Shown piece after piece: positions 13,494 through 36,088 of a stretch of DNA of 37,358 nucleotides. Below the pieces are notes generated by a model. It was given only the letters and a program-made list of their open reading frames with translations. It did no database searches and had not been told where the DNA came from. The stretch comes from a virus, in the UHGV virus genome UHGV-0063828, one strand, 5' to 3'. The stretch's first letter is position 1. Every line of letters begins with the position of its first letter. A program made the position numbers and the translations under genes.

Positions 13494-13522
13494 TAGCCCT
13501 GCCTAACGGTGGGGCTTTTTTG
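13494..13522 (+). terminator. Intrinsic terminator after capsid gene
   Basis: AGCCCTGCC-TAAC-GGTGGGGCT hairpin with wobble pairs followed by TTTTTT. Confidence 0.6.
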
Positions 13523-13551
13523 TATGTAAATACTCCATAAAGGGGGTAACT

Positions 13552-14248: not shown

Positions 14249-14257
14249 GGGGTAATA

Positions 14258-15091: not shown

Positions 15092-15164
15092 TTGCTTCTC
15101 TAAATAAAACATGACGCGGGAGGTTAACGCCTCCCTTATTCCTGTTTTATAGTGAGGTGATTCG

Positions 15165-18683: not shown

Positions 18684-18722
18684 TTAAAATAGCGGGGAGA
18701 AATCCCCGCTAAGGATTCTTAT

Positions 18723-19019: not shown

Positions 19020-19021
19020 TT

Positions 19022-19327: not shown

Positions 19328-19629
19328 TGGCATTTTGGGTAGATGGCGCTTTGGGGACTAGGGCGGGTAAAGCAAATCAAGGATGGTTTGATATTCCTAA
19401 CGGTTGGACAGCCGACGCTTTCGGGACTATTTCATTCTGTGTTCATTCTTCCGGTGGTGGCGGCGGTGACTCTGAATTGTTTATTCATGGTTTTTGTGTT
19501 TCTGGAAGCCATAAGGGTCATGATTGGGGACAGATCCATTCTTGTATTGCACCGCAAGGAGCAGTAATTACAGTTAGCACAAATAGGGGGATCGCTCATC
19601 TTCGTTATAGACGTTTGAGCAATCGCTAA
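19327..19629 (+). CDS. Small Gly/Trp-rich protein, paralog 3 of 3
   Basis: TAATG stop/start overlap with paralog 2; AGGAGA SD; conserved FDIPNGW core. Confidence 0.6.
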   Translation: MAFWVDGALGTRAGKANQGWFDIPNGWTADAFGTISFCVHSSGGGGGDSELFIHGFCVSGSHKGHDWGQIHSCIAPQGAVITVSTNRGIAHLRYRRLSNR

Positions 19630-19683
19630 ATAAATAGAATTACGGGTATGTACCCTATTGTTTAAAATAGAAGGAAAAGAATA

Positions 19684-20154
19684 ATGACTACTAAACTTGA
19701 TATTTTTTCTGGTGGCCTCGTTGGTCTGTTTCTGCAAGAAGACGTAAGCAATAAAGACCTTGATGCTGAAACCTATCTGGAAATCCCAGAATGTGCGGCT
19801 TTCCCGGAAACTGGTGTAGAACGTTCTACTATCGATGTTCCTAACTTCGGTGGTCCGTATAACCGTAAGCTGGTTGGTCGTATGTCTGTACCGGATATCG
19901 AACTTTCGATCAACTACATGCCGGGTAACGAAGTACACGAAAAACTGATTAAAGCAACCGAAGACGGTAAGCGCGTACAGCTTAAAATTGCTTACTACAT
20001 CGACGCTACGAAAAAATCTGGTGTGCACATCGCTTATAACGGCTTCCTGTCTAAAACTACCATGACTGGTGGTGAGGATGCTGTAGTAGGCCGTACCTTC
20101 ACCTTTGTAGTAGATGGTGCTCCGGTTAAACAAGCTGTTTTCCAGAAAGTCTAA
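19684..20154 (+). CDS. Major tail (tube) protein
   Basis: 156 aa, strongly optimised codons like the capsid domain; precedes chaperone pair and tape measure; strong tetraloop terminator immediately downstream. Confidence 0.65.
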   Translation: MTTKLDIFSGGLVGLFLQEDVSNKDLDAETYLEIPECAAFPETGVERSTIDVPNFGGPYNRKLVGRMSVPDIELSINYMPGNEVHEKLIKATEDGKRVQLKIAYYIDATKKSGVHIAYNGFLSKTTMTGGEDAVVGRTFTFVVDGAPVKQAVFQKV

Positions 20155-20163
20155 TATTATCTA

Positions 20164-20188
20164 GCCATCCTTCGGGGTGGCTTTTTTG
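20164..20188 (+). terminator. Intrinsic terminator with UUCG tetraloop after major tail protein gene
   Basis: GCCATCC-TTCG-GGGTGGC followed by TTTTTTG. Confidence 0.7.
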
Positions 20189-20236
20189 TTTCCAATTCTA
20201 AATAAACATATCTAATTAACTTAAGAGGAAACAAGA

Positions 20237-20545
20237 ATGAATATTAATGAAATGTTAGCCGCACTCTCTCCGAAACGTGAATCTTTGACCATCGGTGGAT
20301 TTACTTTCTATGCTCGCCCTATGTCAGTAAAAGAATTTAACGAACATGTTTTCAATACCGATAAAGAAGATCGTGATGAACGTTCTATTCTTCGTTGTAT
20401 TGAAGATGAAGACGGTAAGCCGGTATTTGAATCTATGGAACAAGTTAAGGCACTGTATACTAACGTCCGCAGTGAATTAATCGGTTTGGTTGCTCAAGCA
20501 TCATTGATGCAAGATCCGGCAGTAATTGAAAACGAGGTAAAGTGA
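20237..20545 (+). CDS. Tail assembly chaperone (gpG-like position)
   Basis: AAGAGGAA SD; ~100 aa acidic protein between tail tube and tape measure. Confidence 0.6.
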   Translation: MNINEMLAALSPKRESLTIGGFTFYARPMSVKEFNEHVFNTDKEDRDERSILRCIEDEDGKPVFESMEQVKALYTNVRSELIGLVAQASLMQDPAVIENEVK

Positions 20546-20916
20546 ACCCGCTTCTGAATTTCTACTTTCGGCAAATGATGCGATCGGGGCTTAGTAAAGA
20601 TGAAATGGATAATATGCCAATCACTCTGTTTTGGAAATTATACATTTTCGACACCTACTTAGAACCACAAAGCCCCGCGTTTCATGATATGCAGAATGCG
20701 ATGTTGCAATATTCCATGTATATGACGTCGCAAGGAATGACACGCGAAACTGCACGTAAACTCAAGCCTAGCCAATTCCAATTAATTAGAGAAGAAAAAC
20801 TCTTTAAAACTAAAGAAGAACTGGAAGAAATTGCACGCAAGAAAGAAGAAGAACGTAAAGCGGCAATGATGAACATGTTCGATCCATCTTTGCTTGAGAA
20901 ACTCAGAAGCGGTTAA
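20542..20916 (+). CDS. Second tail assembly chaperone (gpT-like position)
   Basis: GTG start overlapping upstream stop (GTGA) with GAGG SD; in -1 frame relative to the upstream gene. Confidence 0.55.
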   Translation: MNPLLNFYFRQMMRSGLSKDEMDNMPITLFWKLYIFDTYLEPQSPAFHDMQNAMLQYSMYMTSQGMTRETARKLKPSQFQLIREEKLFKTKEELEEIARKKEEERKAAMMNMFDPSLLEKLRSG

Positions 20917-20927
20917 AGGGGTAATTT

Positions 20928-23357: not shown

Positions 23358-23361
23358 TTAA

Positions 23362-23406
23362 AGCCCCCATAGTCATAAATAATCATAAAACTATGGGGGC
23401 TTTTCT
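23362..23406 (+). promoter_or_regulatory. Long hairpin whose 3' arm contains the only SD-like sequence of the downstream gene
   Basis: AGCCCCCATAG (23362-23372) pairs with CTATGGGGGCT (23391-23401); ATG at 23407; related hairpin CCCTCATA/TATGGGGG at 30128-30149 precedes ATG at 30156. Confidence 0.5.
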
Positions 23407-23967
23407 ATGTTCAAATCAAAGAATATTAAAATCACAGATTTTACTCTTAAATCAAAACAGCCTTTCTTCAAGGCGCAATCTATCTCCGGTAAGTTCCAGC
23501 GTCGCTTTACTGGCATCCATTTTTACGAAGCAGAATTTACCGCGAATTACATGGCTCAGGATATTAACGAAGTAAAAGAATTTGTAGCACGTCACCTTTT
23601 TGGTCGTCCTTTTAGTGTGCCACTGTCTTACTTTTCAAAATATACAGGTGATGTACGCCAGATGGTTACGGCTGCTGCTGGTACTGCTCGCGGTGGGCGT
23701 AAGGTGAGAATCTCCAACTTCACCGGAACACTGAAAGCGGGAACTATCATCCAGTTTGAGAACCACAAGAAAATCTACACGATCACCGAAGATGTGAAAT
23801 CAGGTGGTGAAATGAAACTCTTCCCTAACTTGCGTCAGAACGTCCTGGCGGGTGAGGTGATCAAGTATCAGAACGTAGAAGGTGAATTTGTTCTCAAAAC
23901 TGAAAATATCGATTGGAAGATCGCCCAGATTGGCAAGATGAAATTTGAATTAGTGGAGAATGTATAA
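23407..23967 (+). CDS. Minor tail protein (tail-tip, gpM-like position)
   Basis: First gene after tape measure; its only SD-like run (GGGGG) lies in the 3' arm of an upstream hairpin. Confidence 0.55.
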   Translation: MFKSKNIKITDFTLKSKQPFFKAQSISGKFQRRFTGIHFYEAEFTANYMAQDINEVKEFVARHLFGRPFSVPLSYFSKYTGDVRQMVTAAAGTARGGRKVRISNFTGTLKAGTIIQFENHKKIYTITEDVKSGGEMKLFPNLRQNVLAGEVIKYQNVEGEFVLKTENIDWKIAQIGKMKFELVENV

Positions 23968-24620
23968 TGGCAACTATTCAGGAATCATTCAGCAAACTTT
24001 GCACTAATCTGGACTTCATCGAGGTATACAACGACCAGACAGGTCAGAATGTGTCTAGATTGACGCTACCGCAACTTTTCTCCACTGGATCGATGTTTCA
24101 CATTATCGAAGTGATAACAGCGTCAGGGGACGTTCTACGGCTTACTGATGGGTATTTCGATTTGGACTATAACGGATTTACGTATCTCGCAACGGGTGAT
24201 TTTCTTCAAATCTCATCGAATACCGAAGAGAAGGAGATCAACAACAACGGGATTAACGTAACTGTTTCTAACGTTCGCGAAGAATACATTACCCTAATTC
24301 GAAACAAGCAATTCGATAAATCTGATGTAAAAATCGAAATGGTGTTCCTGAACCCTAACACGGGCAAGGTTGAAACCACTTACCCTGTTTTCCGTGGGGT
24401 AGTCGATTCCATCGGGATTAACATCGAACATGAAGATGATGAGTGTAAAAACGAATCAGAATTTCAGCTTAATAGTATCTGGGAAGTTCTAGATAAAAAC
24501 GCTCGAAGTCATGCTTCCGATGGTATCCACCGATCCTATGTTGGAAACGAGAACGATCTATTCTTCTCCCGTGCCGGGAAGTGGAACTCAGAAAGCAAGT
24601 GGCATTCATCGAAGAAATAA
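23967..24620 (+). CDS. Minor tail protein (tail-tip, gpL-like position)
   Basis: ATG overlaps upstream stop (TAATG); GGAGAA SD. Confidence 0.55.
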   Translation: MATIQESFSKLCTNLDFIEVYNDQTGQNVSRLTLPQLFSTGSMFHIIEVITASGDVLRLTDGYFDLDYNGFTYLATGDFLQISSNTEEKEINNNGINVTVSNVREEYITLIRNKQFDKSDVKIEMVFLNPNTGKVETTYPVFRGVVDSIGINIEHEDDECKNESEFQLNSIWEVLDKNARSHASDGIHRSYVGNENDLFFSRAGKWNSESKWHSSKK

Positions 24621-24666
24621 TCCCTTCTCCCTAAGCCTAGTAAATAACAGCATGGAGGTATTCAAC

Positions 24667-25086
24667 ATGCTAAAAACTAGGCTTATCACTGATTACATCA
24701 ATTCTTTAATAGGTCAGGAGTTCGTTCAAGGCGAGAATGATTGCAATCTAATTGCATGTAAGATCATCGATATTCTCGCTGGCACTGACCTATATAATTC
24801 TCTTTATAAAAAATATTCAACTAAAGAAGAAGGCTTGAAAATCTGCAAAGAATTAAGCGGATACACAAACATCCTTCAACCAATTAAGAAACATTTCAAA
24901 TTAGTCACTGATGATTTACAGGACGGCGACTTACTGGTCACAGCCCACAAATTAGGAAACCGCAAATATTATTCCGTAGTTCCTCATTATTCCGGTTATG
25001 GCCTCGTTGAAGAAGATGGTATCTGGATGACCATTCCTGTTTCAGACATTGACTATGAACAAGTTTATAGATTCGGGGGTGAATAA
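24667..25086 (+). CDS. Tail-tip protein with NlpC/P60-like Cys/His motif (gpK-like position)
   Basis: Start placed at ATG 24667 with GGAGGT SD; ENDCNL...DGDLLVTAH...PHY suggests a Cys-His peptidase fold. Confidence 0.5.
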   Translation: MLKTRLITDYINSLIGQEFVQGENDCNLIACKIIDILAGTDLYNSLYKKYSTKEEGLKICKELSGYTNILQPIKKHFKLVTDDLQDGDLLVTAHKLGNRKYYSVVPHYSGYGLVEEDGIWMTIPVSDIDYEQVYRFGGE

Positions 25087-28000
25087 TGGGATTTGAAGTA
25101 TTGGTAGGCGCGGTTATTGCTGGTGCGTCTGCTGGGATGGCTGCTGCTGCAACATTTTCTGTTATGACCGCAGTCGCTATCGGTATGGCTGCTGGTGCAA
25201 TGACCTTGATCGCTTCCACTGTAGGCGCACCAAAAACACCTAAAGTACAAAGCCCAGATAATGCGGTGACACTAGGAACATCAAACGATCCTAAAACAGT
25301 ATTACCCGTTCTTTTCGGTACTACCCGAACTGGTGCAATCTGCGTTTACAAAGCAATTTCACAGCGTGAAAATAACAAACTGGTACAAATTTTTGCTATT
25401 TCAGAAGGTGAGATCGATCACTTTAAAGCACTGCACATCGATAATAAAAACGTTCTCATTAGTCAGAATATGACAATTCGTGATGGTATTCTCGATAAAG
25501 GAAACATTAAAGACGAATACCGCAAAGTGTTAGAAGTCGAGTTTCGCACTGGTAAAAATCCTAACACTGCATTGGATCTGGCTAAACATCATTTGGGCGC
25601 TGATTGGGATGATCGGTATCAGGGTAACGGCATTGCGACCATGTGTATTGTTTTACGTCGTGATGACAAATCTCTTGCTGCTGGTGTTGATATTCTCCAG
25701 CCAAATAGCCAGGTAGCAGTAGACGTTTGCGGCCTTAAAATCCGTAACCTTGAAACCAATGCTATTGAGGCTAGCACTAACGGCGTGGATCAGATTTTCC
25801 ACTACCTAACAAATGAAAAATATGGCTTATCCGTACCAATTGAAAACATTAACGTTGATTCATTCCTGAAAGTACGTAAACAAGTACGCCAGATGGATCT
25901 ACATTCAAACGGTGCATGTGATCCGAACGCCAGCTTTAAAGAGAACTTGACTAATCTTATGCAGACTTTCGGCGGGGTGATGTTCGAATCCTTTGGACGT
26001 ATTACGCTGAAACTGGATGCTCCTGATATTGTTAAGCATACCTTCAATGAAGACAATATCATGATGGGTAAGGTATCACTGAAAACAGGTGGCACTAACG
26101 GTTATTTCAATACCATTAACGCGATGTATCAAGAACCATCAATTGACTATTCAGAGCAAATGCTACGTTATCCGGCTGATGCTGAAAACGATGCTACTGT
26201 TCGCGCAGATGGTCGAATTATTGCTAAGGATGTAGAATATCGTTTCGTTAAGTCTAAAGATCAGATTGATAAACTCGCGAGCATTGAGCGAAATAAATCT
26301 CGTATCACTCAGGTTATCAGCTTTATGACTACTGACGCATTCACTGCCGAAGTTTGGGATGTTATTAGCGTTACCTATGATGAATTGAAACTGAATAATT
26401 CACTTTGGCGCATTACTGCAATTGATCGTTCTATTGATTCTGGTATTGCTGGGATGATGACTATCACCGCTACAGAATATAATTCTCAGGTTTATACTGA
26501 CCTGAACTATGCGGCAACTCCAGACAATAGACCAAGTGGTTTACCGGATTCAATGACAGTACAGAAACCGACTAATTTCAGAATTAAGGCAACTGGTGAG
26601 ACAATCCACGGTAAGAACGTTACTTTAACATGGGATGCACCGGAAGATTTTAACCGCTACGGCTTCCAGATTGATTATCGTGTGAGTGGATCACCTAACT
26701 GGATTAAGCTGGGACAGACTTCACAGCAAATTTTCAATATCAATGCACTGACAAAAGGTCGCTCCTACGATTACCGAGTTTGTGCTTTCGGTATTATTGC
26801 TCGTTCCGAATGGGTGGAACTGGTTAACCAGAATCCAGAAGTTACCTATGAATTGCCGACTCCGGTTATTCGAATCAAAAATCAGGGTAGCACGCCTGGT
26901 ACTTTCGAAGGCAATGATCTGATTATCGAATGGGAAAATCAGCAAGCCTTAGATGTGGTTATCAACGGTGAAACTAACAAGTTTAGTGACCTGTTTGAAG
27001 CCTACATTATCAAGGTAACTAACAAGGCTGGTAAGTCTATTCAGTACCGTACCCGCGATCCTGAATCATGGACCTATACGCTTGATATGAACCAGTTTAA
27101 CGGCCTTTCCCGTGAATTGACGGTAGAAGTATCAGTCAAGGGCTATAACAACTCAGAGAGCGCCCCAGCGCGTTTAGTGGCTATTAACCCACAGCATAAG
27201 CCAATGAAAGGTTTTAGTGCGCGTGGTGGCTTTAATACTGCGTTTGTTAGCTGGGCGGATGACGTAGAACATGACTATGCAGGGTCAATCATCCAGTATG
27301 CAACCGATAACACTTTCTCAGATGCAAGGGCAGTAAGCACGAATAGTGTTAGCCATACTTCCTTTGATTTGGCTGACGGTGATTATTATATCCGTGGTGC
27401 TCACTATGATATTTTCGGTATGGATGATGCTGTTTGGTCTGAACCGTATTTCATGCAAATGAAATCTACCATTAGTTGGGACGATCAGGACAAAGAAGCA
27501 CTGGAAGACCTGATTGGTTTACAAGATCGCTTAGATGAAACCATCGCGGATGCTATTGCTCAAGCTGGCGCTAATGCCGATGCTAAAATTGATGCAATGC
27601 ATAAGCAAATCACTACCGAAACAGGGCAGACGGTCCAAGCCTCAGCCAATACCTTAAAGAGTCTGATTGCTACCAGCGAGCAAGCTAGCTCCACTAAGAT
27701 TGATCAGGTTAAAGCTGAACTGAAAGGCGATATCACCAAAGAAGTTAGCGCATCCGCTACTACCCTGAAACAAGCAATTGCTACCAGTGAGGCAGCAAGC
27801 GCAAGTAAGATTGATCAAGTTCGGGTAGAAATGGATGGCAAGATTGCTGGTGTGAATCAGGAAGCAGATGTAAAAATCGATGCTTTGAAGGGAACCATTA
27901 ACAGCAAATATAATCTGGCGGTTAATGCAGATGGTCGCGTGGCTGGTATTCACATGAGCGCAACCAACGATCCGGCGCAACCGACGAGAATCATCTTTAC

Positions 28001-28862
28001 GGCTGATAAAATCGCGGTAGCTCCACAGAACGGATCGGAAGTATGCCCGTTTGGCATCGAAGATAACAAAGTTTATCTCGATAATGCGATGATTCGTAAT
28101 GCTGCAATTGGCACAGCCCAGATTAGTGATGCTAGTATCACCACGGCTAAGATCGGCACAGCCCAGATTAACGGCGCTCACATCCAACACGCACAGATCG
28201 GAACAGGTCATATCATTGATGGCTCTATCGATAATGCTAAAATTGGTAACTATATCCAGTCTTATAACTGGAATGGTAACGATGGATGGTATATCGGCAA
28301 AGATGGCACTTGTCATTTTAGACACGCTAATATTCGTGGTCATTTGGTGGCTGATTCCGGAGAAATGAACAACGTAACGATTAATTCAAGTTGCCGCATT
28401 TTGGGTATGCTTGATGCTAATCAGGTGCGTGGTGACTTCGTGAAAGCTATTGGTCGTCGATTCCCACATTGGGACGAAAACCCATCATTGGGCTACCCCG
28501 GTTATCCGCAAGGTACAATCACTGTTCGAATTGAAGATGATCACCCGTTTGATCGTCAGATTATCGTTCCGGCTATTAGCTTTGGTGGTCTTAATGCGCG
28601 TGAAGGCTCGAATAACAATACTTACTATGATAACTGTCGCTTGATTGTTCGCAAGAACGGTGCTGAATTATATAACCGTGCATATGGTAGACAGACTGGA
28701 TTGTATAGTGCTGTTATTGATATGCCAGCCGGACACGGACCAGTTACGCTAACTTTTGAAGTAAGTTCAAGCGCAATCAACAACTGGACTCCCAGCACAT
28801 GGATCAGCGATCTTTCTGTAATTGTTACTAAGAAAGCCGCGACTGGTATTTCTGTTTCTTAA
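25086..28862 (+). CDS. Central tail fibre / host specificity protein: gpI-like N-terminal segment fused to gpJ-like body
   Basis: 1258 aa; N-terminal Gly/Ala-rich hydrophobic segment resembles lambda gpI C-terminus as recalled; fibronectin-III-like repeats (LTWDAPEDF...YDYRVCAFG); C-terminus DDHPFDRQIIVP...ATGISVS resembles lambda J as recalled. Confidence 0.85.
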   Translation: MGFEVLVGAVIAGASAGMAAAATFSVMTAVAIGMAAGAMTLIASTVGAPKTPKVQSPDNAVTLGTSNDPKTVLPVLFGTTRTGAICVYKAISQRENNKLVQIFAISEGEIDHFKALHIDNKNVLISQNMTIRDGILDKGNIKDEYRKVLEVEFRTGKNPNTALDLAKHHLGADWDDRYQGNGIATMCIVLRRDDKSLAAGVDILQPNSQVAVDVCGLKIRNLETNAIEASTNGVDQIFHYLTNEKYGLSVPIENINVDSFLKVRKQVRQMDLHSNGACDPNASFKENLTNLMQTFGGVMFESFGRITLKLDAPDIVKHTFNEDNIMMGKVSLKTGGTNGYFNTINAMYQEPSIDYSEQMLRYPADAENDATVRADGRIIAKDVEYRFVKSKDQIDKLASIERNKSRITQVISFMTTDAFTAEVWDVISVTYDELKLNNSLWRITAIDRSIDSGIAGMMTITATEYNSQVYTDLNYAATPDNRPSGLPDSMTVQKPTNFRIKATGETIHGKNVTLTWDAPEDFNRYGFQIDYRVSGSPNWIKLGQTSQQIFNINALTKGRSYDYRVCAFGIIARSEWVELVNQNPEVTYELPTPVIRIKNQGSTPGTFEGNDLIIEWENQQALDVVINGETNKFSDLFEAYIIKVTNKAGKSIQYRTRDPESWTYTLDMNQFNGLSRELTVEVSVKGYNNSESAPARLVAINPQHKPMKGFSARGGFNTAFVSWADDVEHDYAGSIIQYATDNTFSDARAVSTNSVSHTSFDLADGDYYIRGAHYDIFGMDDAVWSEPYFMQMKSTISWDDQDKEALEDLIGLQDRLDETIADAIAQAGANADAKIDAMHKQITTETGQTVQASANTLKSLIATSEQASSTKIDQVKAELKGDITKEVSASATTLKQAIATSEAASASKIDQVRVEMDGKIAGVNQEADVKIDALKGTINSKYNLAVNADGRVAGIHMSATNDPAQPTRIIFTADKIAVAPQNGSEVCPFGIEDNKVYLDNAMIRNAAIGTAQISDASITTAKIGTAQINGAHIQHAQIGTGHIIDGSIDNAKIGNYIQSYNWNGNDGWYIGKDGTCHFRHANIRGHLVADSGEMNNVTINSSCRILGMLDANQVRGDFVKAIGRRFPHWDENPSLGYPGYPQGTITVRIEDDHPFDRQIIVPAISFGGLNAREGSNNNTYYDNCRLIVRKNGAELYNRAYGRQTGLYSAVIDMPAGHGPVTLTFEVSSSAINNWTPSTWISDLSVIVTKKAATGISVS

Positions 28863-28879
28863 AATTTAATTCTAATAAT

Positions 28880-28921
28880 TAATCCCGCTTAATTCTTTTG
28901 AGTTAGGCGGGATTATTTTTA
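28880..28921 (+). terminator. Intrinsic terminator after central tail fibre gene
   Basis: AATCCCGC...GCGGGATT stem followed by ATTTTTAT. Confidence 0.55.
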
Positions 28922-28964: not shown

Positions 28965-29243
28965 ATGACTGAAATTATATATGGCGGTATCGGTGTTATC
29001 GCCTTAATTTGTGGTGGTCTTTGGAGACTTCACCGAAATCAATTAGCAACAGAAAATAGATTGTCGAAATTAGAGTCCAATGATGCATTGTTTAATCAGA
29101 AGTTTGAAACAATGCAAAGTAACCACGACCAGATCGCCGAGAGAGTTTATCGCATGGAACAAACACTACACGGTATAGAGAAGAAAGTGGTTGCGATGGA
29201 CGCCAAATTTGACCAAGTTCTCGACATACTCAAACAAAAATAA
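28965..29243 (+). CDS. Membrane-anchored coiled-coil protein (92 aa), possible lysis or spanin-like component
   Basis: Single N-terminal TM helix (IIYGGIGVIALICGGLW) then predicted coiled coil; follows the terminator after the central fibre gene. Confidence 0.45.
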   Translation: MTEIIYGGIGVIALICGGLWRLHRNQLATENRLSKLESNDALFNQKFETMQSNHDQIAERVYRMEQTLHGIEKKVVAMDAKFDQVLDILKQK

Positions 29244-29261
29244 TAATAAAGGGGTGAATAT

Positions 29262-29432
29262 ATGAAGAATAAACTTAAGAAATATTTTGGTTATCTCTTG
29301 ATTATCGCCCTCACTTATAACGTAGCAATTAGACCTCTGCTAACGTCCTTTGGGCTTGAACTCCCGGCTATGACCGTGGATGAACAATTGCTAAGGACAC
29401 TGGCGGGGGTCTTTTCGTTATTAGGGGGCTAA
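29262..29432 (+). CDS. Small membrane protein (56 aa), possible holin-like
   Basis: Found by manual translation (below track size cut-off); AAGGGGTGA SD; hydrophobic segment YFGYLLIIALTYNVAI; no cysteine so not a lipoprotein. Confidence 0.4.
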   Translation: MKNKLKKYFGYLLIIALTYNVAIRPLLTSFGLELPAMTVDEQLLRTLAGVFSLLGG

Positions 29433-29433
29433 C

Positions 29434-30117
29434 ATGGCAACCAGTACCAATAAACGAAACGCTCTAAGGACTAAGAAAGCGTTGAGGCAATGGTCTGAAA
29501 AGGCAACAGATACATTCGAAAGGGCACTAGGGGAAGGGGCGATCTTTGCTTCCAGAGCACTCCAGAAGAAGATTAACAAGAATGTTGATAGACCTACTCG
29601 CTGGACTCAGCAAGCTGTAGGTAATACCAACTACAAGAACCGATCAGGGACGAGACACCAAATCTTCATCAAGGGCGCAAGGGATAAGGATAAGAAGATC
29701 GGCAGTCAGGACGACTATTTGAAACACTATTTCGATGGAGGCAAAATCAATAAGCTAGTTCCAATCGCTAACGGTAAGGTCTTAGACTCCCACGGGAACA
29801 TTAAGGCCATCAAAGGCGGTAAGATGATGCGTAACATCGAAAACGGCAACTTCATCAAGGTAGAGAACAAGGAAGGGACTTTTATCATGAAGAAGTACAA
29901 GCCTAAGAAATCCCGAACCAAACGCGCTAGGAATGGATCTGCGGTGGCAAAACGTCGCTTAGAGAAACGCATACAGAAACAGAGCAAGCGAATTGTTGCC
30001 GTTAAATCGGATAAAATTTCTACTCGTTATTCGACGCTAGGATCGTGGGAAAGTAACGAAGCAATGATGCTTAAGAACATCAATAAGCACATTAAATCGC
30101 GCATGAAATACGTTTAA
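29434..30117 (+). CDS. Highly basic Lys/Arg-rich protein (227 aa), function unknown
   Basis: GGGGG SD; start 1 nt after upstream stop; dense K/R content throughout. Confidence 0.55.
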   Translation: MATSTNKRNALRTKKALRQWSEKATDTFERALGEGAIFASRALQKKINKNVDRPTRWTQQAVGNTNYKNRSGTRHQIFIKGARDKDKKIGSQDDYLKHYFDGGKINKLVPIANGKVLDSHGNIKAIKGGKMMRNIENGNFIKVENKEGTFIMKKYKPKKSRTKRARNGSAVAKRRLEKRIQKQSKRIVAVKSDKISTRYSTLGSWESNEAMMLKNINKHIKSRMKYV

Positions 30118-30155
30118 TCCATAAATACCCTCATAGAAACTTATGGGGGTATAAC

Positions 30156-30503
30156 ATGGCTAAAAATATTTTTACTGAATTTCCTACTTATCCGGTCGAT
30201 CAGCTTTCCGGTATTTTTATTAATGGCATTAGCCCAGAATCAATGACACATGATTTTGAGGCGAAGAGAGTTAAACATAAACAATATAAAGAATGTATCC
30301 GCGATCATGAAAAAGGGACCGTGTTTTGTGTCGCTACATTGGCTAAACGTCCTAAATATCGTTTTCGTGTAGGGCAAGAAGTCGATGTAGTTAATCCTTA
30401 TAGCTTTAACTGTCTGGGTGATGCACGCGCGGTGTGTGTAGGCACTGCTCCTTATTATATCAAGGGTATGCGCTTTATTGGTTATATCTTCGAAATGATC
30501 TAA
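30156..30503 (+). CDS. Hypothetical protein (115 aa)
   Basis: SD lies in the 3' arm of an upstream hairpin; no recognisable motifs. Confidence 0.5.
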   Translation: MAKNIFTEFPTYPVDQLSGIFINGISPESMTHDFEAKRVKHKQYKECIRDHEKGTVFCVATLAKRPKYRFRVGQEVDVVNPYSFNCLGDARAVCVGTAPYYIKGMRFIGYIFEMI

Positions 30504-30512
30504 GGGGGTAAT

Positions 30513-30866
30513 ATGTTAAGCAAACATTTTTCTCGCAAGGAATTTAAATGTAAATGCGGAAAATGTGATTATGATACAATCGACGCTGAATTACTGGTAA
30601 TTCTTGAGGATGTACGCGAACACTTCGGGAAACCAGTAATTATTAACAGTGGGAACCGTTGTCCGACTCATAACAAGAATGTAGGCGGTGCAACCAACAG
30701 CTATCACGTTCGAGGCCGTGCGGCTGACATTGTGATCAAGGGTGTCTCCCCTGATATTGTCCATGCTTATCTTGATGGGAAATATCCTACTCAATACGGC
30801 TTAGGCAAATATAAAACCTTTACGCATATCGATTCCAGATCGAAAAAATCACGATGGAATGGATAA
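30513..30866 (+). CDS. Peptidase M15-family protein, putative endolysin
   Basis: FSRKEFKCKCGKC...INSGNRCPTHNKNVGGATNSYHVRGRAADI matches the zinc peptidase M15 / YcbK-like signature as recalled; AAGGGGG SD; bidirectional terminator downstream. Confidence 0.6.
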   Translation: MLSKHFSRKEFKCKCGKCDYDTIDAELLVILEDVREHFGKPVIINSGNRCPTHNKNVGGATNSYHVRGRAADIVIKGVSPDIVHAYLDGKYPTQYGLGKYKTFTHIDSRSKKSRWNG

Positions 30867-30868: not shown

Positions 30869-30897
30869 TTAAAGCGCCCACTAGAGGCGCTTTTTTG
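30869..30897. terminator. Bidirectional terminator between convergent M15 peptidase and helicase genes
   Basis: AGCGCC-cactaga-GGCGCT hairpin flanked by A-run upstream and T-run downstream. Confidence 0.65.
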
Positions 30898-32388
30898 TTA
30901 TATAGCAATTGTTTTAGTTGCATAGCTGAACTTGTCGGTTAGATAATAGCGGATTCTCTCAAGTGCATGTTTTACCGCATAATTTTTATGCTTGACTTTT
31001 CCGTTACGACCGAATATACACAAATGATCGATAAGATCCCAGACCGTTGCAATGTCTTTCGAACCATGTTTACGCAATGCACGACCGATACTCTGACGAA
31101 CGATAGTTGATTCCTTCACTGGATGACCGAAAATAACATGGTGCAAATTCTTAATTGAAACACCAGTAGAGAACACACCATAAGACGCAACACAAATGAT
31201 CCCGGTGTCACCCTCCGCCATTTTCTTAAATTCATCACGTTCTTCTGTCTTAACTCCACCGTCAATATAATAAACCTTGTCGTGTACCTTCTGTAACGCG
31301 TCATACATAAGTTTTCCGTGCTTAGTATTGCGGAACATCAGGAATACGTTTTCGCCCTTCTTAGCGAGTTTTAGCGCCAAATTACAAGCAAACTTATTTC
31401 GTCGTGGGTTAGATGTAATATACTTGATCTCTTCCGCATATTCTCTCCCCTTAACCGCGCTACATTCCTCATCGGTATAACGAAGGAAAAGACAGTTGAT
31501 TTTCAGTTTCGTCACTTGACCTTCTTCCATCAGGCGGTCAATACTCACGATCTTAGAAATATCACCGAAAAGCCCGACATACTGCATTAAATGGCACTTT
31601 GATTCTTTCGGGGAACCAGTCATACCGATCTTAAACTGGCAATGATTCATTCCGTTAATGATATTGGTAATATTTTTGGCACTAGCCTTATGCGATTCAT
31701 CAACTATCAACATTCCATATTGTCGGAACCATTCAGGAGGCATCTTGCAAGCTGATTGCCAGGTACTAACCGTGATTAACCTGTCTCCCGGATGTTTCCC
31801 GCTACCACTCATCATTGTATGGATTGCTTCATAAGGGAATAACCGATAATCGATGAAATCATCCCTCATTTGAACCACTAGCGATGTAGTCGGGACAATG
31901 ATTAACACCTTTCCGGTGTAATGCTCTAAGTACCAACGAGACAGCATACAAGCAATCAATGACTTTCCGGCACTGGTAGGAAGAACCAGCATTCTACGGC
32001 GATTGTGGATACCCTGAAAGACTGCTTCACGCTGATACCAGTAAGGATTGATTTTATTGGAACCGGAATACACTTCTAAAGAGTCAATCCACGAATCAAT
32101 CTGTTCTTTGGTTACATCTTCCTTCTCAAGTAATCGCGGGTCAATCCAGACTGAATAGCCCATATTTTTAACGAAGACACCCAATGTTTTTAATAGTCCA
32201 ATTGGTAGGGTATTTTCATGCGTAAACAGTCTTATTCGTCCATCCCAGCCGGAATACTTGTAGCGGGGGCTAAACCTAGCCCCTTCAACCTCAAACGAGA
32301 AATAATCTCTTAATTCCATTCCGATAGAAGGAGAGCAATCAACCTTAACGAAACTGTAATCTTGAAAATGAATTTTAATATCTTGCAT
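30898..32388 (-). CDS. SF2 helicase, T4 UvsW-like
   Basis: Walker A LPTSAGKS, DESH box, TGSP, QSIGRALR motifs; N-terminus MQDIKIHFQDYSFVKVDC resembles T4 UvsW as recalled; start placed at ATG 32388 with GGAGTGG SD (track start 32397 is GTG). Confidence 0.65.
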   Translation of the reverse strand: MQDIKIHFQDYSFVKVDCSPSIGMELRDYFSFEVEGARFSPRYKYSGWDGRIRLFTHENTLPIGLLKTLGVFVKNMGYSVWIDPRLLEKEDVTKEQIDSWIDSLEVYSGSNKINPYWYQREAVFQGIHNRRRMLVLPTSAGKSLIACMLSRWYLEHYTGKVLIIVPTTSLVVQMRDDFIDYRLFPYEAIHTMMSGSGKHPGDRLITVSTWQSACKMPPEWFRQYGMLIVDESHKASAKNITNIINGMNHCQFKIGMTGSPKESKCHLMQYVGLFGDISKIVSIDRLMEEGQVTKLKINCLFLRYTDEECSAVKGREYAEEIKYITSNPRRNKFACNLALKLAKKGENVFLMFRNTKHGKLMYDALQKVHDKVYYIDGGVKTEERDEFKKMAEGDTGIICVASYGVFSTGVSIKNLHHVIFGHPVKESTIVRQSIGRALRKHGSKDIATVWDLIDHLCIFGRNGKVKHKNYAVKHALERIRYYLTDKFSYATKTIAI

Positions 32389-32957
32389 TAGTTCCACTCC
32401 ACACTTGCAATATTCTTTATATTGTTTAGTGATTTATTGCAGTAGTGGAATGTTTCAGTTTTACCGTATTCAATCCCGCCTATACCCACATCCAGTAATC
32501 TCTTTATTGCTCTTTCAGTGGCTAAAGCATGTTTCATTGATGGCATTTCACCAGCAAAGACAATATCAAAGTTATGACCGGGATTGCGTACACCCAGATT
32601 AACACGTCGCTTGATGATTGACTTTGTAACACCAAATTTACCAATATCCCCTGATTTCATTACATAGAGATAAGGCACACCCGCTTTATATTGAAAGTAA
32701 TCACTTTTGAGACATGCACAGCGTTTACCTTCATTAAGCAGGTTGGTAGCTGATTTGTCGGCTCTATTGCCGCATCTGGTACATGTAAGAGCAATTCTTG
32801 AATGAAGCCCTTTAAACTCACCCAGAAAGCCATGAAAGACTAATGGTAAGTCCTTCTCTTTGATGTGAGTCAGAATGCGTTGTTCTAATGCCGATGGAGT
32901 TACAGCACGGGAGGATTTAGGAGTAAAAACAATATCTTTAGCCATTACTGGAATCAT
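32388..32957 (-). CDS. Zinc-ribbon plus T5orf172 (GIY-YIG-like) domain protein
   Basis: CTRCGN...CACLK cysteine pairs followed by YLYVMKSGDIGKFGVTK...ERAIKR...GKTETFHY; stop overlaps the helicase ATG (TAATG). Confidence 0.55.
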   Translation of the reverse strand: MIPVMAKDIVFTPKSSRAVTPSALEQRILTHIKEKDLPLVFHGFLGEFKGLHSRIALTCTRCGNRADKSATNLLNEGKRCACLKSDYFQYKAGVPYLYVMKSGDIGKFGVTKSIIKRRVNLGVRNPGHNFDIVFAGEMPSMKHALATERAIKRLLDVGIGGIEYGKTETFHYCNKSLNNIKNIASVEWN

Positions 32958-33110
32958 ATAGACCTCACTTTTTAACTTATAGGCATAACCTCAATATGGT
33001 TGGTTTGGGATTTAGGGTCGCGTATTATACACATCCAGATAGAGAATGCAATAGTAAGACAATTTTCTCTAATAAATAGTAGTGAGCTTATTATTTTAGA
33101 GGAAACTACT

Positions 33111-34286
33111 ATGAAACTTGCTTACGCTGCCGAAATTCCTTTTGTTAAGAAAACTCGCGGTTTATCGCCGGAAGAGTACCAACAACGAATCATCGCTAAA
33201 CTGGAACCTGCTTTCGTATTTGGTGGATTTATCCTACCGTGGAAGGGTAATCACACTTACTTTCGAATCTACAATTTAGATACACAAGAATATAAGGACT
33301 ACAAATTACGCAAACTGGAAGATACTAACGGGGGTGAGTTATTCCAGACTGAAAAGGCTGTATGGTTGAAAATGGAATCTCGTTGTAATGAGAAGGGAAA
33401 GAAATTCCTCGGATGGCAAGGAGAATGGAAAGGGCGAAATAGAACGAAAGCCCGTGTTTTGTGCCCTGAACACAATCAAATCATGACGCCATCTCTATTA
33501 CATGCTCTTAAAGATGATTTCGATTTTGATTGCAAAATCTGTATGGCTGAAAAATCCCAACGGGTAAGAAGTGGCAAGACTTTTGATGAAGTTATTAAGG
33601 ACAAAGAGACAATCATCAATGCACGTTGCGAGACTACACCTTACATCTTCAAAGGATTCATCATAAACACCCCACACCTAAAGGATGTTAAATTTAAAAC
33701 CTATTGCAAGACACATAACCACGAATGGGAATCTCATTTAAGATGTGCTGATTCTTTCACTTGTCCGCTTTGCATTAAAGACCAACTGGTGCAACTGTCT
33801 AACCGGACTTATCAGGGTAAGGCTAGTTTCTACATTCAATTATTAGATGACAAATTTATTAAATTTGGAATCACTACCCGGAAACCAGAAGAACGAATGA
33901 GAGAGCAAACCAGAAAGAGCAACTTCACTCACCGCTTAATCTTTACTCATGAGTTTGAGGATGGTTGGAAAGCCGTTGATTTAGAGCATGAAGTAAAACA
34001 ACGCTTCAAGACTCATGCAGCACCCTACAAAGATTTCAAGGATGGATGGTCGGAAACTCTGACTATTGATGAGTTACCACACTTACAGCAACTGGTTTAT
34101 GACTACCTAACCAATCAACCGGACGAGGCTAATATGTGGGTATCTCCGAAAGATGTATTTGATGACGATACATTCAAGCTACATACTCACTTCTACGGCA
34201 TCAATAAACCGGAATTTTTCTGTATTGATGACGACAGTCCTGATTTAATGGATGAATACTTTAATACTCTCTTAGAGGCTCTCTAA
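33111..34286 (+). CDS. Zinc-finger plus T5orf172 (GIY-YIG-like) domain protein
   Basis: Start placed at ATG 33111 with AGAGGA SD; Cys/His clusters (CPEHN...CKIC; CKTHNH...CPLC) then FYIQLLDDKFIKFGITTRKPEERMRE...GWSETL. Confidence 0.55.
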   Translation: MKLAYAAEIPFVKKTRGLSPEEYQQRIIAKLEPAFVFGGFILPWKGNHTYFRIYNLDTQEYKDYKLRKLEDTNGGELFQTEKAVWLKMESRCNEKGKKFLGWQGEWKGRNRTKARVLCPEHNQIMTPSLLHALKDDFDFDCKICMAEKSQRVRSGKTFDEVIKDKETIINARCETTPYIFKGFIINTPHLKDVKFKTYCKTHNHEWESHLRCADSFTCPLCIKDQLVQLSNRTYQGKASFYIQLLDDKFIKFGITTRKPEERMREQTRKSNFTHRLIFTHEFEDGWKAVDLEHEVKQRFKTHAAPYKDFKDGWSETLTIDELPHLQQLVYDYLTNQPDEANMWVSPKDVFDDDTFKLHTHFYGINKPEFFCIDDDSPDLMDEYFNTLLEAL

Positions 34287-34359: not shown

Positions 34360-36039
34360 TTAAATTCCAAATTCCTGTAATGGACCTGGTATTTCCTCTT
34401 CTGGTTTCCAGTTCTTATCTGTCAGCATGTCTAAACATGGATGCAAAACAAGCCCGTTACTTTCCAGAATCTGCCTATCATTGATAGTTTTCAAATCAAT
34501 GAATATCCGGCCTTTCCTCGTTCCTCTTGAATTTTCTATTACAACTCTCTGGGTTTTTCCATCGATGTATTCCAGTACAAACAAGTTTTTGTTTCTGTCA
34601 ATCCTGCTACACCCGATCCGCTTTAGAGCTTGCTTAATCTTAAACCGGACCTTTAGTCGTTCCTCGTTGTAAACATCTTCTAAATCAAATTCTGCGAGCT
34701 TCTCCCAGCCTTGAGAGTCAACAGAATACATTTCCTCTTCTGCCATCTTGATCTGATTGTAGAGTGTTTCACGCTCGCTATTGAGGGTAGTAATCTGATC
34801 GGCTAGTTCCTTCGTTGCTCCTGTCATAGCAGAAAGGGCAATCAGGTTATCAATCTTGCGTGATATCTCATCAACCTGTACTTTCAACGCCGGAACCGGA
34901 TTAGCCTTATCCTCAGCAATCCAGATTTTATCAGCCAGCAATTGCAATACAGCTTTCTCTAATTGATCACCTCGAAAACTCCAGTTTGGATGCTCGCAAT
35001 CAAGTCTACGTGAACGGGTCGCATCACATGTATAACGATACTGGTCAGAACGTTTGTTCGTTCCCTTCACTTTAACCATAGCGCAACCGCAATGATCACA
35101 TTTCAATAGGCCAATACCACTAAGCAGGGGGATCGGTTTAACTTCTTCCTTGTCTCCAAAGTTCCATGCTCTAGCACCAATATTTTTCTTAAGGTGATAG
35201 AACGTAGCATCATCAATAACACGAGGGTAATAATCCTTTAACTCATAGTTAACGCCATCTACAGAGACCTCCTTGATACCAATCAAAGCGCGGGTATGAA
35301 ACAACCTTTCAACCATTGCCCGTGACCATTTTGAATGCTTCTTATTACTAACCGCTGGTGGTGGTGCATATGTCTCGTTAAGGTGATCCAGTATTTCGGC
35401 GGTTGAACGTCCATTCTTCCGTAATTCCACAATCTCCTGAACAACAGGGAAGAAGACCGGATGAGGCAACACATAACCGGAAGTGGTATCAGTCCACCAC
35501 ATATTCTTTCCAACTTCCTCGATTGCCACTGCCGGATTCTGGGGATTTTCTTGATGGGCTTTAATCTTAATCAGTGCGCTTGAGTTAGTACGATTGCGCT
35601 TAGTCTGGCTTTCCTCATTACCACGGATGAATAAAAGGATGGAGAACATCAGGTCCATCGGATTAGCGGTAACAGTATCCAGCGAGTAGATCTTGTTATC
35701 CATGCCAGTAACAATGGTTATCCCCCTACGGATTATTGAAAGGAATAACTCCTGCGCACTGACAATATCGGCACGGGATAAACGGTCCAAGTTTTCAATG
35801 AATAGCCAGCTACCAACAGGAACGGATCTACCAATTGCATCAAGGAAACGAGATAGCGCCCCTGTTTTAGAGTTAGCACCTTTAAACGCAGATACACCCA
35901 GATCCTGATAATCATTTACCAGTTCTAAGTCATACTTTGCCGCAATCTCTCTCGCCATCCTGATTTGTCGTTCATAACTCGAACCATCACTCTGACGCAT
36001 AGACGAGAAGCGAATATACGAATACAGTTTAGTTTTCAT
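34360..36039 (-). CDS. Large serine recombinase (integrase)
   Basis: N-terminal resolvase-type catalytic domain (YSYIRFSSMRQ, ENLDRLSR); cysteine-rich zinc ribbon (CDHCGC...YTCDA...CEH); C-terminal coiled coil; ~559 aa from ATG at 36039. Confidence 0.85.
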   Translation of the reverse strand: MKTKLYSYIRFSSMRQSDGSSYERQIRMAREIAAKYDLELVNDYQDLGVSAFKGANSKTGALSRFLDAIGRSVPVGSWLFIENLDRLSRADIVSAQELFLSIIRRGITIVTGMDNKIYSLDTVTANPMDLMFSILLFIRGNEESQTKRNRTNSSALIKIKAHQENPQNPAVAIEEVGKNMWWTDTTSGYVLPHPVFFPVVQEIVELRKNGRSTAEILDHLNETYAPPPAVSNKKHSKWSRAMVERLFHTRALIGIKEVSVDGVNYELKDYYPRVIDDATFYHLKKNIGARAWNFGDKEEVKPIPLLSGIGLLKCDHCGCAMVKVKGTNKRSDQYRYTCDATRSRRLDCEHPNWSFRGDQLEKAVLQLLADKIWIAEDKANPVPALKVQVDEISRKIDNLIALSAMTGATKELADQITTLNSERETLYNQIKMAEEEMYSVDSQGWEKLAEFDLEDVYNEERLKVRFKIKQALKRIGCSRIDRNKNLFVLEYIDGKTQRVVIENSRGTRKGRIFIDLKTINDRQILESNGLVLHPCLDMLTDKNWKPEEEIPGPLQEFGI

Positions 36040-36051
36040 ACCATTTCCAAA

Positions 36052-36088
36052 CAAAAACGCCCCTACCGTGTATTATAACGATAGGGGC
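36052..36088 (-). terminator. Minus-strand terminator between secreted-protein gene and integrase start; loop contains TATAAT
   Basis: On minus strand GCCCCTA...TAGGGGC stem followed by GTTTTTGTTT; candidate integrase promoter overlaps. Confidence 0.45.

Follow-up and report, generated by a model that had tools for sequence, protein, structure and literature searches.

What does a strongly basic protein do between small membrane proteins and an endolysin, at the place where a spanin or a lysis regulator would normally be encoded? The locus lies in the viral genome UHGV-0063828, and the whole stretch of 37,358 nucleotides that was analysed is referred to here as the window.

A conserved gene for a basic protein within a lysis-type cassette

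The open reading frame (ORF) at 29434-30117 (+) runs from an ATG to a TAA and encodes 227 residues, with a net charge of +39, a pI of 10.78, 25.1% Lys plus Arg and 7.9% Asp plus Glu. Among the 36 larger ORFs of the window none is more basic, the next-highest net charge being +16, on a 499-aa protein. The initial annotation had described a Lys/Arg-rich protein without a transmembrane segment or lipobox, lying between small membrane proteins and an M15 peptidase in a lysis-type block, and this description stands in full. The Kyte-Doolittle maximum over 19-residue windows is 0.44, so that a membrane segment is absent, and the protein contains no cysteine, making a lipobox impossible; by hydrophobicity and sequence, it bears neither of the marks of a spanin, an N-terminal membrane segment or a lipobox cysteine. 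A secretion signal is likewise absent. Relatives make up about 30 protein clusters with 24-99% identity in enterobacterial prophages, all with a pI of 10.1-11.2, and every public copy of the clade is named 'hypothetical protein'. The gene is real and conserved, not a chance ORF.

Two terminator-like hairpins bound a five-gene unit that holds two small membrane proteins, the 227-aa protein, a 115-aa protein and the endolysin:

28880-28915 (+): hairpin resembling an intrinsic terminator, with a stem of 16 bp and a T run, separating the cassette from the tail-tip gene
28965-29243 (+): opening gene of the cassette; its 92-aa product has a membrane segment at the N-terminus and a coiled coil; holin, antiholin or i-spanin-like
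29262-29432 (+): 56-aa small membrane protein, holin-like, with a hydrophobic segment; conserved upstream partner in the cassette
29423-29436 (+): coupling junction with Shine-Dalgarno AGGGGG, upstream TAA and ATG, read directly from the sequence
29434-30117 (+): gene of the 227-aa basic protein; probable lambda-gpZ-like tail completion protein, distant relative of PHROG 1924
30156-30503 (+): 115-aa conserved protein, always directly downstream of the basic protein; seven orthologues align
30513-30866 (+): endolysin, Peptidase_M15_3, last gene of the cassette (Pfam E 1.1e-27; phrog_894 endolysin E 1.9e-45)
30871-30893 (no strand): bidirectional terminator-like hairpin, the shared end of the cassette and of the UvsW helicase gene convergent with it

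Seven terminator-like sites were found, against 1.5 expected from shuffles. The Shine-Dalgarno sequence AGGGGG (29423-28) stands 5 nt ahead of the ATG of the 227-aa gene, and the TAA (29430-32) of the 56-aa gene sits between the two, implying translational coupling; distant relatives (loci L002, L014 and L015) keep an abutting or overlapping stop and start at the same junction. A 54-57-aa orthologue of the 56-aa protein fills this slot as a called gene in L002, L013, L014 and L015 and as an uncalled ORF in L004, its hydrophobic segment reaching a KD17 of up to 2.66 in orthologues and 1.65 in the window. Pfam, PHROG and NCBIfam searches assigned it to no family. The 92-aa protein gave just weak matches to coiled-coil families, among them the Rz-like spanin phrog_739 (E 0.077), and its orthologue in L015 a faint match to PF10805 (DUF2730). 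For the 115-aa protein there were zero matches in Pfam, PHROG, NCBIfam and the PDB; nothing supported the idea that it is a displaced tail terminator, comparable to R4C gene 018 that follows the tail-tip genes, for it resembled neither R4C gp18 nor lambda gpU nor any PDB chain. The order of the cassette is constant across relatives despite a swapped endolysin family, the endolysin slot being taken by Peptidase_M15_4 or a T4-type lysozyme (PF00959). When every ORF of the 37-kb window was scanned for a lipobox, only a spurious antisense ORF inside the tape measure gene matched; the window therefore carries no o- or u-spanin that can be recognised.

Homology to PHROG 1924

The initial annotation had recognised no family signature in the protein, which holds only for Pfam, NCBIfam, BLAST and PDB searches. 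Pfam, including PF06763, gave zero matches at E ≤ 1 for the 227-aa protein or any of 14 relatives, and NCBIfam gave none for the 227-aa protein. Neither tblastn with the protein nor megablast with the locus found a match among 50,697 phage genomes, and a PDB sequence search with the family profile returned just a chance match to adenovirus pre-protein VI (E 0.92). [quoted passage not shown]

By hmmscan, the 227-aa protein matches phrog_1924 with an E of 1e-3, as do 10 of the 14 relatives (best E 9.8e-6); core members score about 1e-57, and RcCronus gp44 is a true member (E 2.8e-57). Aligned with gp44 alone, a 14-sequence family reached a Prob of 92.6% and an E of 4.5e-7 (hhalign), and a 30-sequence family aligned with the 7-sequence phrog_1924 alignment over 101 columns with a Prob of 97.5% and an E of 8.8e-12; the motifs DRPTxFT, Q..YL and GNI fall within this alignment. 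In the reverse direction, an HMM built from seven phrog_1924 members picked out the 227-aa ORF alone in the window, with an E of 6.8e-6 against 0.49 for the runner-up. At the level of sequence profiles, these comparisons show the 227-aa protein to be homologous to PHROG 1924, and place its family as a distant sister clade and not as a core member. PHROG 1924 includes gp44 of the Rhodobacter phage RcCronus, gp49 of roseophage R4C, gp46 of S-CBS3, gp67 of Pseudomonas phage MD8 ('tail completion protein'), 'minor tail protein Z' of LESphi2/3 and Citrobacter phiNP_029; it is annotated as 'minor tail protein', a function that is itself an inferred annotation.

An indirect link to lambda gpZ and the predicted fold

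PHROG 1924 in turn connects to lambda gpZ, a small virion protein of 192 residues found at the tail's top beside the DNA end, with a pI of 12.0, 24% Lys plus Arg and a net charge of +37; it matches PF06763 with an E of 5.8e-82. The gpZ family and the phrog_1924 alignment were paired by hhalign with a Prob of 83% and an E of 9e-6, and lambda gpZ itself matched phrog_1924 with an E of 1.9e-4. Residues 4-77 of Z are collinear with residues 7-80 of gp44, the link spanning only the N-terminal ~74 residues. Direct comparison of gpZ with the 227-aa protein gave nothing by BLASTP and a Prob of 0.2% by hhalign of family against family; a large protein search yielded a gpZ alignment with little diversity (at least 56% identity), and the direct hhalign comparison stayed empty after phage gpZ homologues had been added. 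A gpZ HMM built for this analysis matched nothing in the window.

The AlphaFold2 (AF2) model of the 227-aa protein (pLDDT 77.9, pTM 0.64) starts with an N-terminal helix of ~50 residues and a short helix, goes on with β-strands and basic loops that are disordered, and closes with a long C-terminal helix, and the gpZ model (pLDDT 72) has the same order of elements; both models were built on shallow alignments, and their TM-scores to shared neighbours are just ~0.5. TCPs have two long helices, N- and C-terminal, packed alongside each other, and a small sheet, to which gpZ adds an extra β domain (PMC11784142, PMC11661146), and the predicted fold of the 227-aa protein follows this order. The two best neighbours of its model in BFVD, A0A516LCT5 (E 3.8e-5) and F4YCV9 (E 1.4e-2), are also among the top BFVD matches of the gpZ model (E 1.3e-5 and 2.4e-4, respectively), and its lower matches include entries of the HK97-gp10 family and a 'type I neck protein'. 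Against the PDB, Foldseek returned roadblock and ribosomal proteins at a best E of 2.4, which is meaningless. The link to gpZ through sequence and fold is weaker than the homology to PHROG 1924. Taken together, these comparisons make it probable, with a real margin for doubt, that the 227-aa protein is a highly divergent TCP (Neck1/Ne1) of the lambda gpZ type, in a clade related to PHROG 1924. The initial annotation, which had suggested a nucleic-acid-binding packaged protein, pointed in the right direction; the best-supported identity is the narrower one of a gpZ-type TCP.

Gene order and the virion module of the window

In the window, candidates for the neighbours of Z in lambda were found ~15 kb upstream of the 227-aa gene, and the tape measure gene lies between:

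13552-13842 (+): FII-like stopper candidate, 96-aa ORF with a weak match to PF05354 Phage_attach (E 1.3e-4)
13778-14248 (+): gpU-like terminator candidate, 156-aa ORF, the best match of lambda gpU among 217 segments, weak (E 0.014)
20928-23357 (+): tape measure protein (phrog_13674, E 1.4e-65), putative TCP partner

No Z-like gene separates the FII-like candidate from the adjacent gpU-like one, the place that Z occupies in lambda. The ORFs of 96-156 aa in the neck region (13552-14248 and 18723-19629) have weak or no assignments, and a second, unrecognised TCP may possibly be encoded among them. RcCronus has homologues of the window's fused protease-capsid protein and portal (E 8e-54 and 2e-23), indicating that the 227-aa protein occurs together with a virion module of this type in hosts that are very distant. 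A relationship with the capsid and terminator of MD8 was also considered and no similarity was found; only the RcCronus-type head module is related.

Genes of PHROG 1924 lie outside the neck modules, directly before terS or cos, in phiNP, MD8, phi3LM21, RcCronus, R4C and S-CBS3, and in F10 and JBD68, judged by coordinates, at the right genome end. They habitually follow lysis genes. In MD8, where a terminator gene and an FII-like gene but no Z make up part of the neck module, the gene annotated 'tail completion protein' overlaps the spanin genes. Unlike these genes, that of the window does not adjoin the terminase genes; it has stayed next to lysis genes. The habitual place of PHROG 1924 genes, after lysis genes and before terS, explains the odd location of the window gene.

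This same placement, together with the extremely basic composition, favours a reading as an accessory of DNA packaging or of the cos end, in which a basic, DNA-binding protein would aid terminase or protect and position the genome end and would not be a stable component of the tail. The cryo-EM structure of R4C adds to it, since gp49 is missing from the 12 structural proteins modelled (PMC10276861); monomeric TCPs in the lumen are usually lost through symmetry averaging, however (PMC11661146), so that its absence is not decisive. In the R4C, S-CBS and MD8 papers, no statement was found that places a PHROG 1924 member in virions. In the lineage of the window, the 227-aa gene lies ~22 kb from the large terminase gene and never adjoins it, no terminase-associated family was matched, and the links through sequence and fold lead to gpZ, a tail protein. 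We consider a packaging accessory unlikely.

A proposed role and a possible lysis function

As a gpZ-type TCP, the 227-aa protein would be a low-copy virion protein in the neck lumen, bridging the tape measure protein and the DNA end. By analogy with characterised TCPs, the completed tail would take up one or a few copies at the end nearest the head, with the very basic loops and the inserted domain facing the end of the packaged DNA. Heads and tails would require the protein to join efficiently, or the DNA would require it to be positioned and routed correctly at infection, or both; lysis would not require it. We infer its presence in virions, copy number, location, contacts with the tape measure protein and DNA, and mutant phenotype, the partnership with the tape measure protein by analogy with the contacts between 80alpha gp51 and its tape measure protein (PMC11661146). 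Its placement in the lysis cassette could be an inherited trait of gene order: in the lineage of the window, the lysis block, with the probable TCP gene aboard, follows the tail-tip gene.

A unit bounded by terminator-like hairpins and shared with lysis genes, and coupling to a membrane protein, count against a TCP and would also fit a role linked to lysis. The 227-aa protein could be a component of the cassette, either a holin or endolysin regulator or a cationic destabiliser of the outer membrane that replaces the missing spanin in the manner of a disruptin; the retained gene order around a swapped endolysin family and the lack of a lipobox ORF in the window fit this as well. About 15% of phages are without spanin genes, and phiKT replaces spanins by a phage-encoded cationic peptide (bioRxiv 10.1101/515445). 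That disruptin, phiKT gp28, is a small cationic amphipathic peptide; the window protein is likewise cationic but has 227 residues and a predicted globular helix-sheet fold, and its lack of a secretion signal leaves no evident route to the periplasm. MD8 has ordinary embedded i- and o-spanins alongside its PHROG 1924 gene (PMC8508860), which makes the family an improbable spanin substitute, and phiNP also has an Rz gene, while in RcCronus, R4C and S-CBS3 the gene is away from any annotated lysis gene. Fold and profile links point to a virion protein, and zero lysis families were matched. A lysis component, including the spanin or lysis regulator that would normally stand at this position, is very unlikely.

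We give similarly slight credence to a further possibility, in which the clade, and perhaps all of PHROG 1924, is no ordinary TCP but a cationic protein derived from gpZ that acts together with the lysis cassette, for instance by disrupting the outer membrane in a lineage where no spanin is recognised or by coupling virion completion to lysis. Were it true, it would explain both why the gene is locked between holin-like genes and an endolysin whose family is swapped and its translational coupling to a small membrane protein. An intracellular nucleic-acid-binding protein (nucleoid-binding, host-takeover or histone-like) without a structural role, for which the composition alone speaks (pI 10.8, 25% Lys plus Arg), is scarcely credible, as the gene is grouped with late genes for virion and lysis proteins and not with early ones, no DNA-binding domain family was matched and the chain of homology ends at gpZ-type proteins; the host-takeover factor of the initial annotation finds no support.

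With a gpZ-type TCP as the preferred reading, the annotation of the 227-aa clade is corrected, and the gpZ-type branch gains an unannotated enterobacterial clade that no Pfam model covers. The whole branch, PHROG 1924 and the 227-aa clade together, is encoded beside lysis genes and not in the neck module, a caution that not every gene within a lysis cassette is a lysis gene; the locus also draws attention to a phage lineage in whose lysis cassette no spanin can be recognised. Few conserved components of long-tailed phages are as poorly understood as TCPs, and the finding by itself leaves the understanding of any mechanism unchanged.

Comparison with PHROG 1924 and known tail completion proteins

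Before the structure of the 80alpha neck, no TCP had been located in a virion, and mutant phenotypes vary between phages (PMC11784142, PMC11661146, PMC11099176). T5 p143 (255 aa, pI 9.9) resembles the 227-aa protein in its size and basic character and belongs to PHROG 3725 ('tail completion or Neck1 protein'), not to phrog_1924; hhalign against the 227-aa family gave a Prob of 2.4%. It is a minor tail protein at an unexpected site, the side of the tail tip, and its own authors have questioned its membership of the TCP family (PMC11784142).

80alpha gp51, SPP1 gp16.1 and HK97 gp10 share with the predicted fold a long bent N-terminal helix, a loop or β-hairpin region and a long C-terminal helix (PMC11661146, PMC11784142), and entries of the HK97-gp10 family are weak Foldseek matches to the 227-aa model (prob 0.57-0.72). 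These proteins are shorter and far less basic, HK97 gp10 having 149 residues and a net charge of +4, and neither a sequence match nor a PDB fold match to the 227-aa protein was found. In the sole solved case, 80alpha gp51, a single copy sits within the neck lumen, where it caps the end of the DNA and is bound to the tape measure protein (PMC11661146).

Members of PHROG 1924 are closest, with 199-258 residues, a pI of 10.1-12.0 and genes outside the neck module near lysis genes; homology covers ~100 N-terminal and central columns, with DRPTxFT, Q..YL and GN common to both. Identity is just 20-34%, over part of the length, and the C-terminal half of the window protein, including a Lys/Arg-rich insertion at residues 154-184, is unaligned. 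In phages of PHROG 1924 the gene is the last before terS or cos, whereas in the window it follows the tail-tip gene and is flanked by holin-like genes and the endolysin.

Lambda gpZ (PF06763; PHROG 27, 'tail completion or Neck1 protein') differs in giving no direct match by BLASTP, HMM or hhalign, the window protein being 35 residues longer with different insertions, and in its gene, which lies between FII and U, whereas the window gene is not between the equivalents of these. The two proteins are alike in their extreme basic composition, predicted order of elements and BFVD neighbours, and are joined in sequence indirectly, through PHROG 1924. Lambda particles that lack Z are ~500-fold less infectious (PMC11661146), and the role to be expected of the 227-aa protein by analogy would be the same, that of a protein added at the top of the tail and required for infectivity.

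A basic protein encoded in a late five-gene block

The gene at 29434-30117 is an ATG-to-TAA ORF of 227 codons on the plus strand, present just as the initial annotation described it, with a strongly basic product. With a computed pI of 10.78, 25.1% Lys+Arg, 7.9% Asp+Glu and a net charge of +39, the protein stands well apart as the most basic product of the window's 36 larger ORFs, the runner-up being a 499-residue protein with a net charge of +16. The reported lack of a membrane segment and a lipobox was confirmed: the maximum 19-residue hydrophobicity is 0.44, and the protein contains no cysteine and therefore cannot be a lipoprotein. Residues 154-184 form a Lys/Arg-rich insertion that is largely confined to its closest relatives.

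The window is the late region of a large temperate siphophage. The small membrane proteins and the M15 peptidase reported as neighbours of the gene are present, within the following arrangement.

Features of the window
7351, large terminase
9331, W-like adaptor
9836, portal
11393, fused protease and capsid protein
13552, 96-residue ORF, weak match to lambda FII (head closure/stopper; PF05354, E 1.3e-4)
adjoining the 96-residue ORF, 156-residue ORF, best window match of lambda gpU (tail terminator; E 0.014)
14258-15091, plus, 277 residues, second match to phrog_158 (tail-tube family)
15165-18683, plus, tail fibre, 1172 residues, resembling the T4-type long tail fibre distal subunit
19684-20154, plus, tail tube, 156 residues (phrog_158)
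between 19684 and 20928, chaperones
20928, tape measure protein (TMP)
between 20928 and 25086, pb9-like distal tail protein
25086-28862, lambda-J-like tip protein, 1258 residues
28880-28915, strong terminator-like hairpin after the tip gene
28965-30866, five-gene block after the tip gene, including the basic protein gene
upstream of the 56-residue gene, 92-residue protein with N-terminal membrane segment and coiled coil
directly upstream of the basic protein gene, 56-residue membrane protein
29434-30117, plus, basic protein
30156-30503, plus, 115-residue protein with several cysteines, directly downstream of the basic protein gene
30513-30866, Peptidase_M15_3 endolysin, last gene of the block
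30871-30893, bidirectional terminator-like hairpin after the endolysin gene
30898-32397, minus, UvsW-type (T4 UvsW-like) helicase, convergent
32388-32957, minus, and 33000-34286, plus, endonuclease-like genes (phrog_681), probably homing endonucleases
34360-36054, minus, large serine integrase

Seven terminator-like sites were found in the region against 1.5 in shuffled sequences, and the hairpins at both ends of the block suggest that it is transcribed as a unit of its own. At 29423-28 lies a good ribosome-binding site, AGGGGG, and the stop codon of the 56-residue gene falls between this site and the ATG of the basic protein, which implies that the two genes are translationally coupled. Elsewhere in the window, the fibre gene is unusually placed, with the neck-region genes on one side and the main tail tube gene on the other. 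The plus-strand ORFs 23967-24620 and 24511-25086 overlap by 110 nt; in the latter the DUF6950 match does not begin until residue 59, which makes a true start downstream of the listed ATG probable.

Relatives and conserved gene order

The protein is rare: searches across billions of proteins yielded some 30 clusters of relatives, 181-239 residues long, all with a pI of 10.1-11.2 and publicly named, if at all, 'hypothetical protein'. Named hosts are Salmonella, E. coli, Citrobacter, Klebsiella and Enterobacter. One cluster (P0001), 99% identical to the basic protein, has 1129 members. Every one derives from Logan assemblies of sequencing runs and NCBI contributes none, which indicates a prophage common in raw public data and nearly absent from annotated genomes. 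The relatives are chromosomally integrated and also carry UvsW.1 and UvsY-like genes; together with the UvsW-type helicase and the serine integrase, this points to a large, temperate siphophage whose recombination genes are of T4 type. The contig that matches best measures 109 kb.

Gene context is constant across six loci even at 26-40% identity. The block follows a tip protein of about 1140-1360 residues, with two extra small genes between them in loci L014 and L015, and runs from a 92-111-residue membrane/coiled-coil protein through a 54-57-residue membrane protein, the basic protein and a 101-117-residue protein to the endolysin; the start of the basic protein gene abuts or overlaps the preceding stop in the relatives. 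The endolysin slot is filled by Peptidase_M15_3, Peptidase_M15_4 or a T4-type lysozyme (PF00959) across the window and loci L002, L004, L013, L014 and L015, while the four upstream genes stay constant. Lysis cassettes typically exchange endolysins in this way, which confirms the last gene as the endolysin. The 115-residue protein, which is unlike tail terminators and found no counterpart in Pfam, PHROG, NCBIfam or the PDB, invariably adjoins the basic protein downstream (seven orthologues, 30-85% identity) and may act together with it.

The sole sequenced 'phage' with a close homologue is Escherichia phage DCP80 (locus L006; PQ671644.1, record 10899-26251), filed as a 141-kb T4-like member of Straboviridae/Gaprivervirus and carrying motA and ndd-like genes. 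The stretch given contains a siphophage-type tail module, in which ORFs of ~805 and ~1252 residues take the positions of the window's TMP and tip genes; the homologue and an endolysin come next. The record appears to be a chimera or a mis-assembly.

Probable assignment to a tail completion protein family

The basic protein is best regarded as a divergent tail completion protein (TCP, Neck1) of the lambda Z type that had gone unannotated; the genes of its branch are carried along with the lysis cassette. Searches of Pfam, NCBIfam, phage genomes (BLAST) and PDB sequences gave no match; the sole family lead is PHROG 1924, 'minor tail protein' (E 1e-3), which 10 of 14 relatives match, with a best E of 9.8e-6. 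By tblastn, one relative (P0013) leads to gp44 of Rhodobacter phage RcCronus, which matches PHROG 1924 at E 2.8e-57. The gp44 tblastn search yielded 76 phage records; among the matches listed are roseophage R4C gp49, cyanophage S-CBS3 gp46, Citrobacter phiNP, Sinorhizobium phi3LM21 and many Pseudomonas phages. Depositors call these 'minor tail protein', 'minor tail protein Z' or 'tail completion protein', and the PHROG 1924 name is the annotators' inference.

In profile-profile comparison, an alignment of 14 sequences of the window family matched gp44 alone with a probability of 92.6% (E 4.5e-7), and one of 30 sequences matched seven PHROG 1924 members with 97.5% (E 8.8e-12) over 101 columns, window residues 14-125, including the motifs DRPTxFT, Q..YL and GNI. 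Lambda gpZ matches PHROG 1924 at E 1.9e-4 (hmmscan). Direct comparison of the window and gpZ families gave nothing, so the link to gpZ is indirect, through PHROG 1924, and is confined to the N-terminal third.

The AlphaFold2 model (pLDDT 77.9, pTM 0.64) comprises an N-terminal helix of ~50 residues, a short helix, β-strands, disordered basic loops and a long C-terminal helix, elements that recur in the same order in a model of gpZ, both models being built on shallow alignments. The predicted arrangement fits the published TCP fold, in which two long helices lie side by side with a small sheet and to which gpZ adds an extra β domain (PMC11784142, PMC11661146). Among predicted viral structures, the best Foldseek matches were A0A516LCT5 (E 3.8e-5, probability 1.00) and F4YCV9 (E 1.4e-2, probability 0.99), followed by HK97-gp10-family and 'type I neck protein' entries; the gpZ model matches the same two (E 1.3e-5 and 2.4e-4). 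Foldseek against the PDB gave no match.

Position outside the neck module

PHROG 1924 genes lie outside neck modules; they come last before terS (the small terminase gene) or cos, just 3' of the lysis genes. The order in phiNP is antiterminator Q, holin, Rz, further genes, PHROG 1924 gene and terS; in MD8 the gene overlaps the spanin genes, with the genome end and terS after it; phi3LM21 has it between an antiterminator gene and terS. It is last at the right genome end in RcCronus, R4C and S-CBS3 and, by coordinates, in F10 and JBD68. In MD8 the neck module contains FII-like and terminator genes and lacks a Z between them. The window likewise has no Z-like gene between its FII-like and gpU-like ORFs; assignments of its 96-156-residue neck-region ORFs are weak or lacking, and PHROG 1924 and gpZ HMMs run against 217 stop-to-stop window segments found no candidate besides the basic protein.

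The window's capsid (E 8e-54) and portal (E 2e-23) proteins are homologous to those of RcCronus, indicating that the basic protein accompanies a related virion module in widely differing hosts. In R4C (L019, MK882925.1), cryo-EM identified gene 017 as tail fibre and 018 as tail terminator, the latter located after the tail-tip genes (PMC10276861), which shows that neck genes are dispersed in this phage lineage; GenBank labels the two 'ribonuclease III' and 'hypothetical protein'. On the simplest reading, the linkage to lysis genes is ancestral, and in this phage the tail-tip gene precedes the entire block.

Adjacency to terS in the PHROG 1924 phages could instead mark a packaging or cos-end accessory protein, but the gene lies ~22 kb from the terminase gene in the window lineage, and we consider this unlikely. 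Slightly less probable is a lysis function, such as a cationic stand-in for the missing spanin. The block 28965-30866 holds no recognisable spanin, a lipobox scan of all 35-200-residue ORFs of the 37-kb window returned only a spurious antisense ORF (22769-22906), and a cationic peptide replaces spanins in phiKT (bioRxiv 10.1101/515445). MD8 and phiNP, however, have ordinary spanin genes alongside the PHROG 1924 gene (PMC8508860), and the basic protein lacks an export signal and is predicted to be globular, leaving a lysis role unsupported. The 92-residue protein could itself be a short protein resembling an i-spanin or releasin (phrog_739, E 0.077), and the orthologue in L015 faintly matches PF10805 (DUF2730). 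A nucleoid or host-takeover protein, for which only the composition speaks, is very improbable; of the functions initially proposed, host takeover is unsupported, whereas a packaged protein is plausible, one that would lie close to the DNA.

Proposed role in the virion

The basic protein probably acts as TCPs do. By analogy, it would be a low-copy virion component at the junction of the TMP and the DNA end, with its Lys/Arg-rich loops, including the 154-184 insertion, facing the DNA. Our literature search found no published evidence of a PHROG 1924 protein in virions, and R4C gp49 is absent from the 12 modelled virion proteins (PMC10276861); this absence is not decisive, because monomeric lumenal TCPs are routinely averaged out in reconstructions (PMC11661146).

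In 80alpha, one copy of the TCP gp51 occupies the neck interior, its helices forming a five-helix bundle with those of the TMP and its positive surface turned toward the last base pair of DNA (PMC11661146). SPP1 particles without gp16.1 release their DNA outside the cell (PMC11099176). Lambda particles without gpZ, which is proposed to bind one DNA end, look complete but are ~500-fold less infectious (PMC11661146, PMC11784142). In composition, gpZ has a pI of 12.0, 24% Lys+Arg and a net charge of +37 in 192 residues, against 10.78, 25.1% and +39 in 227 residues for the basic protein.
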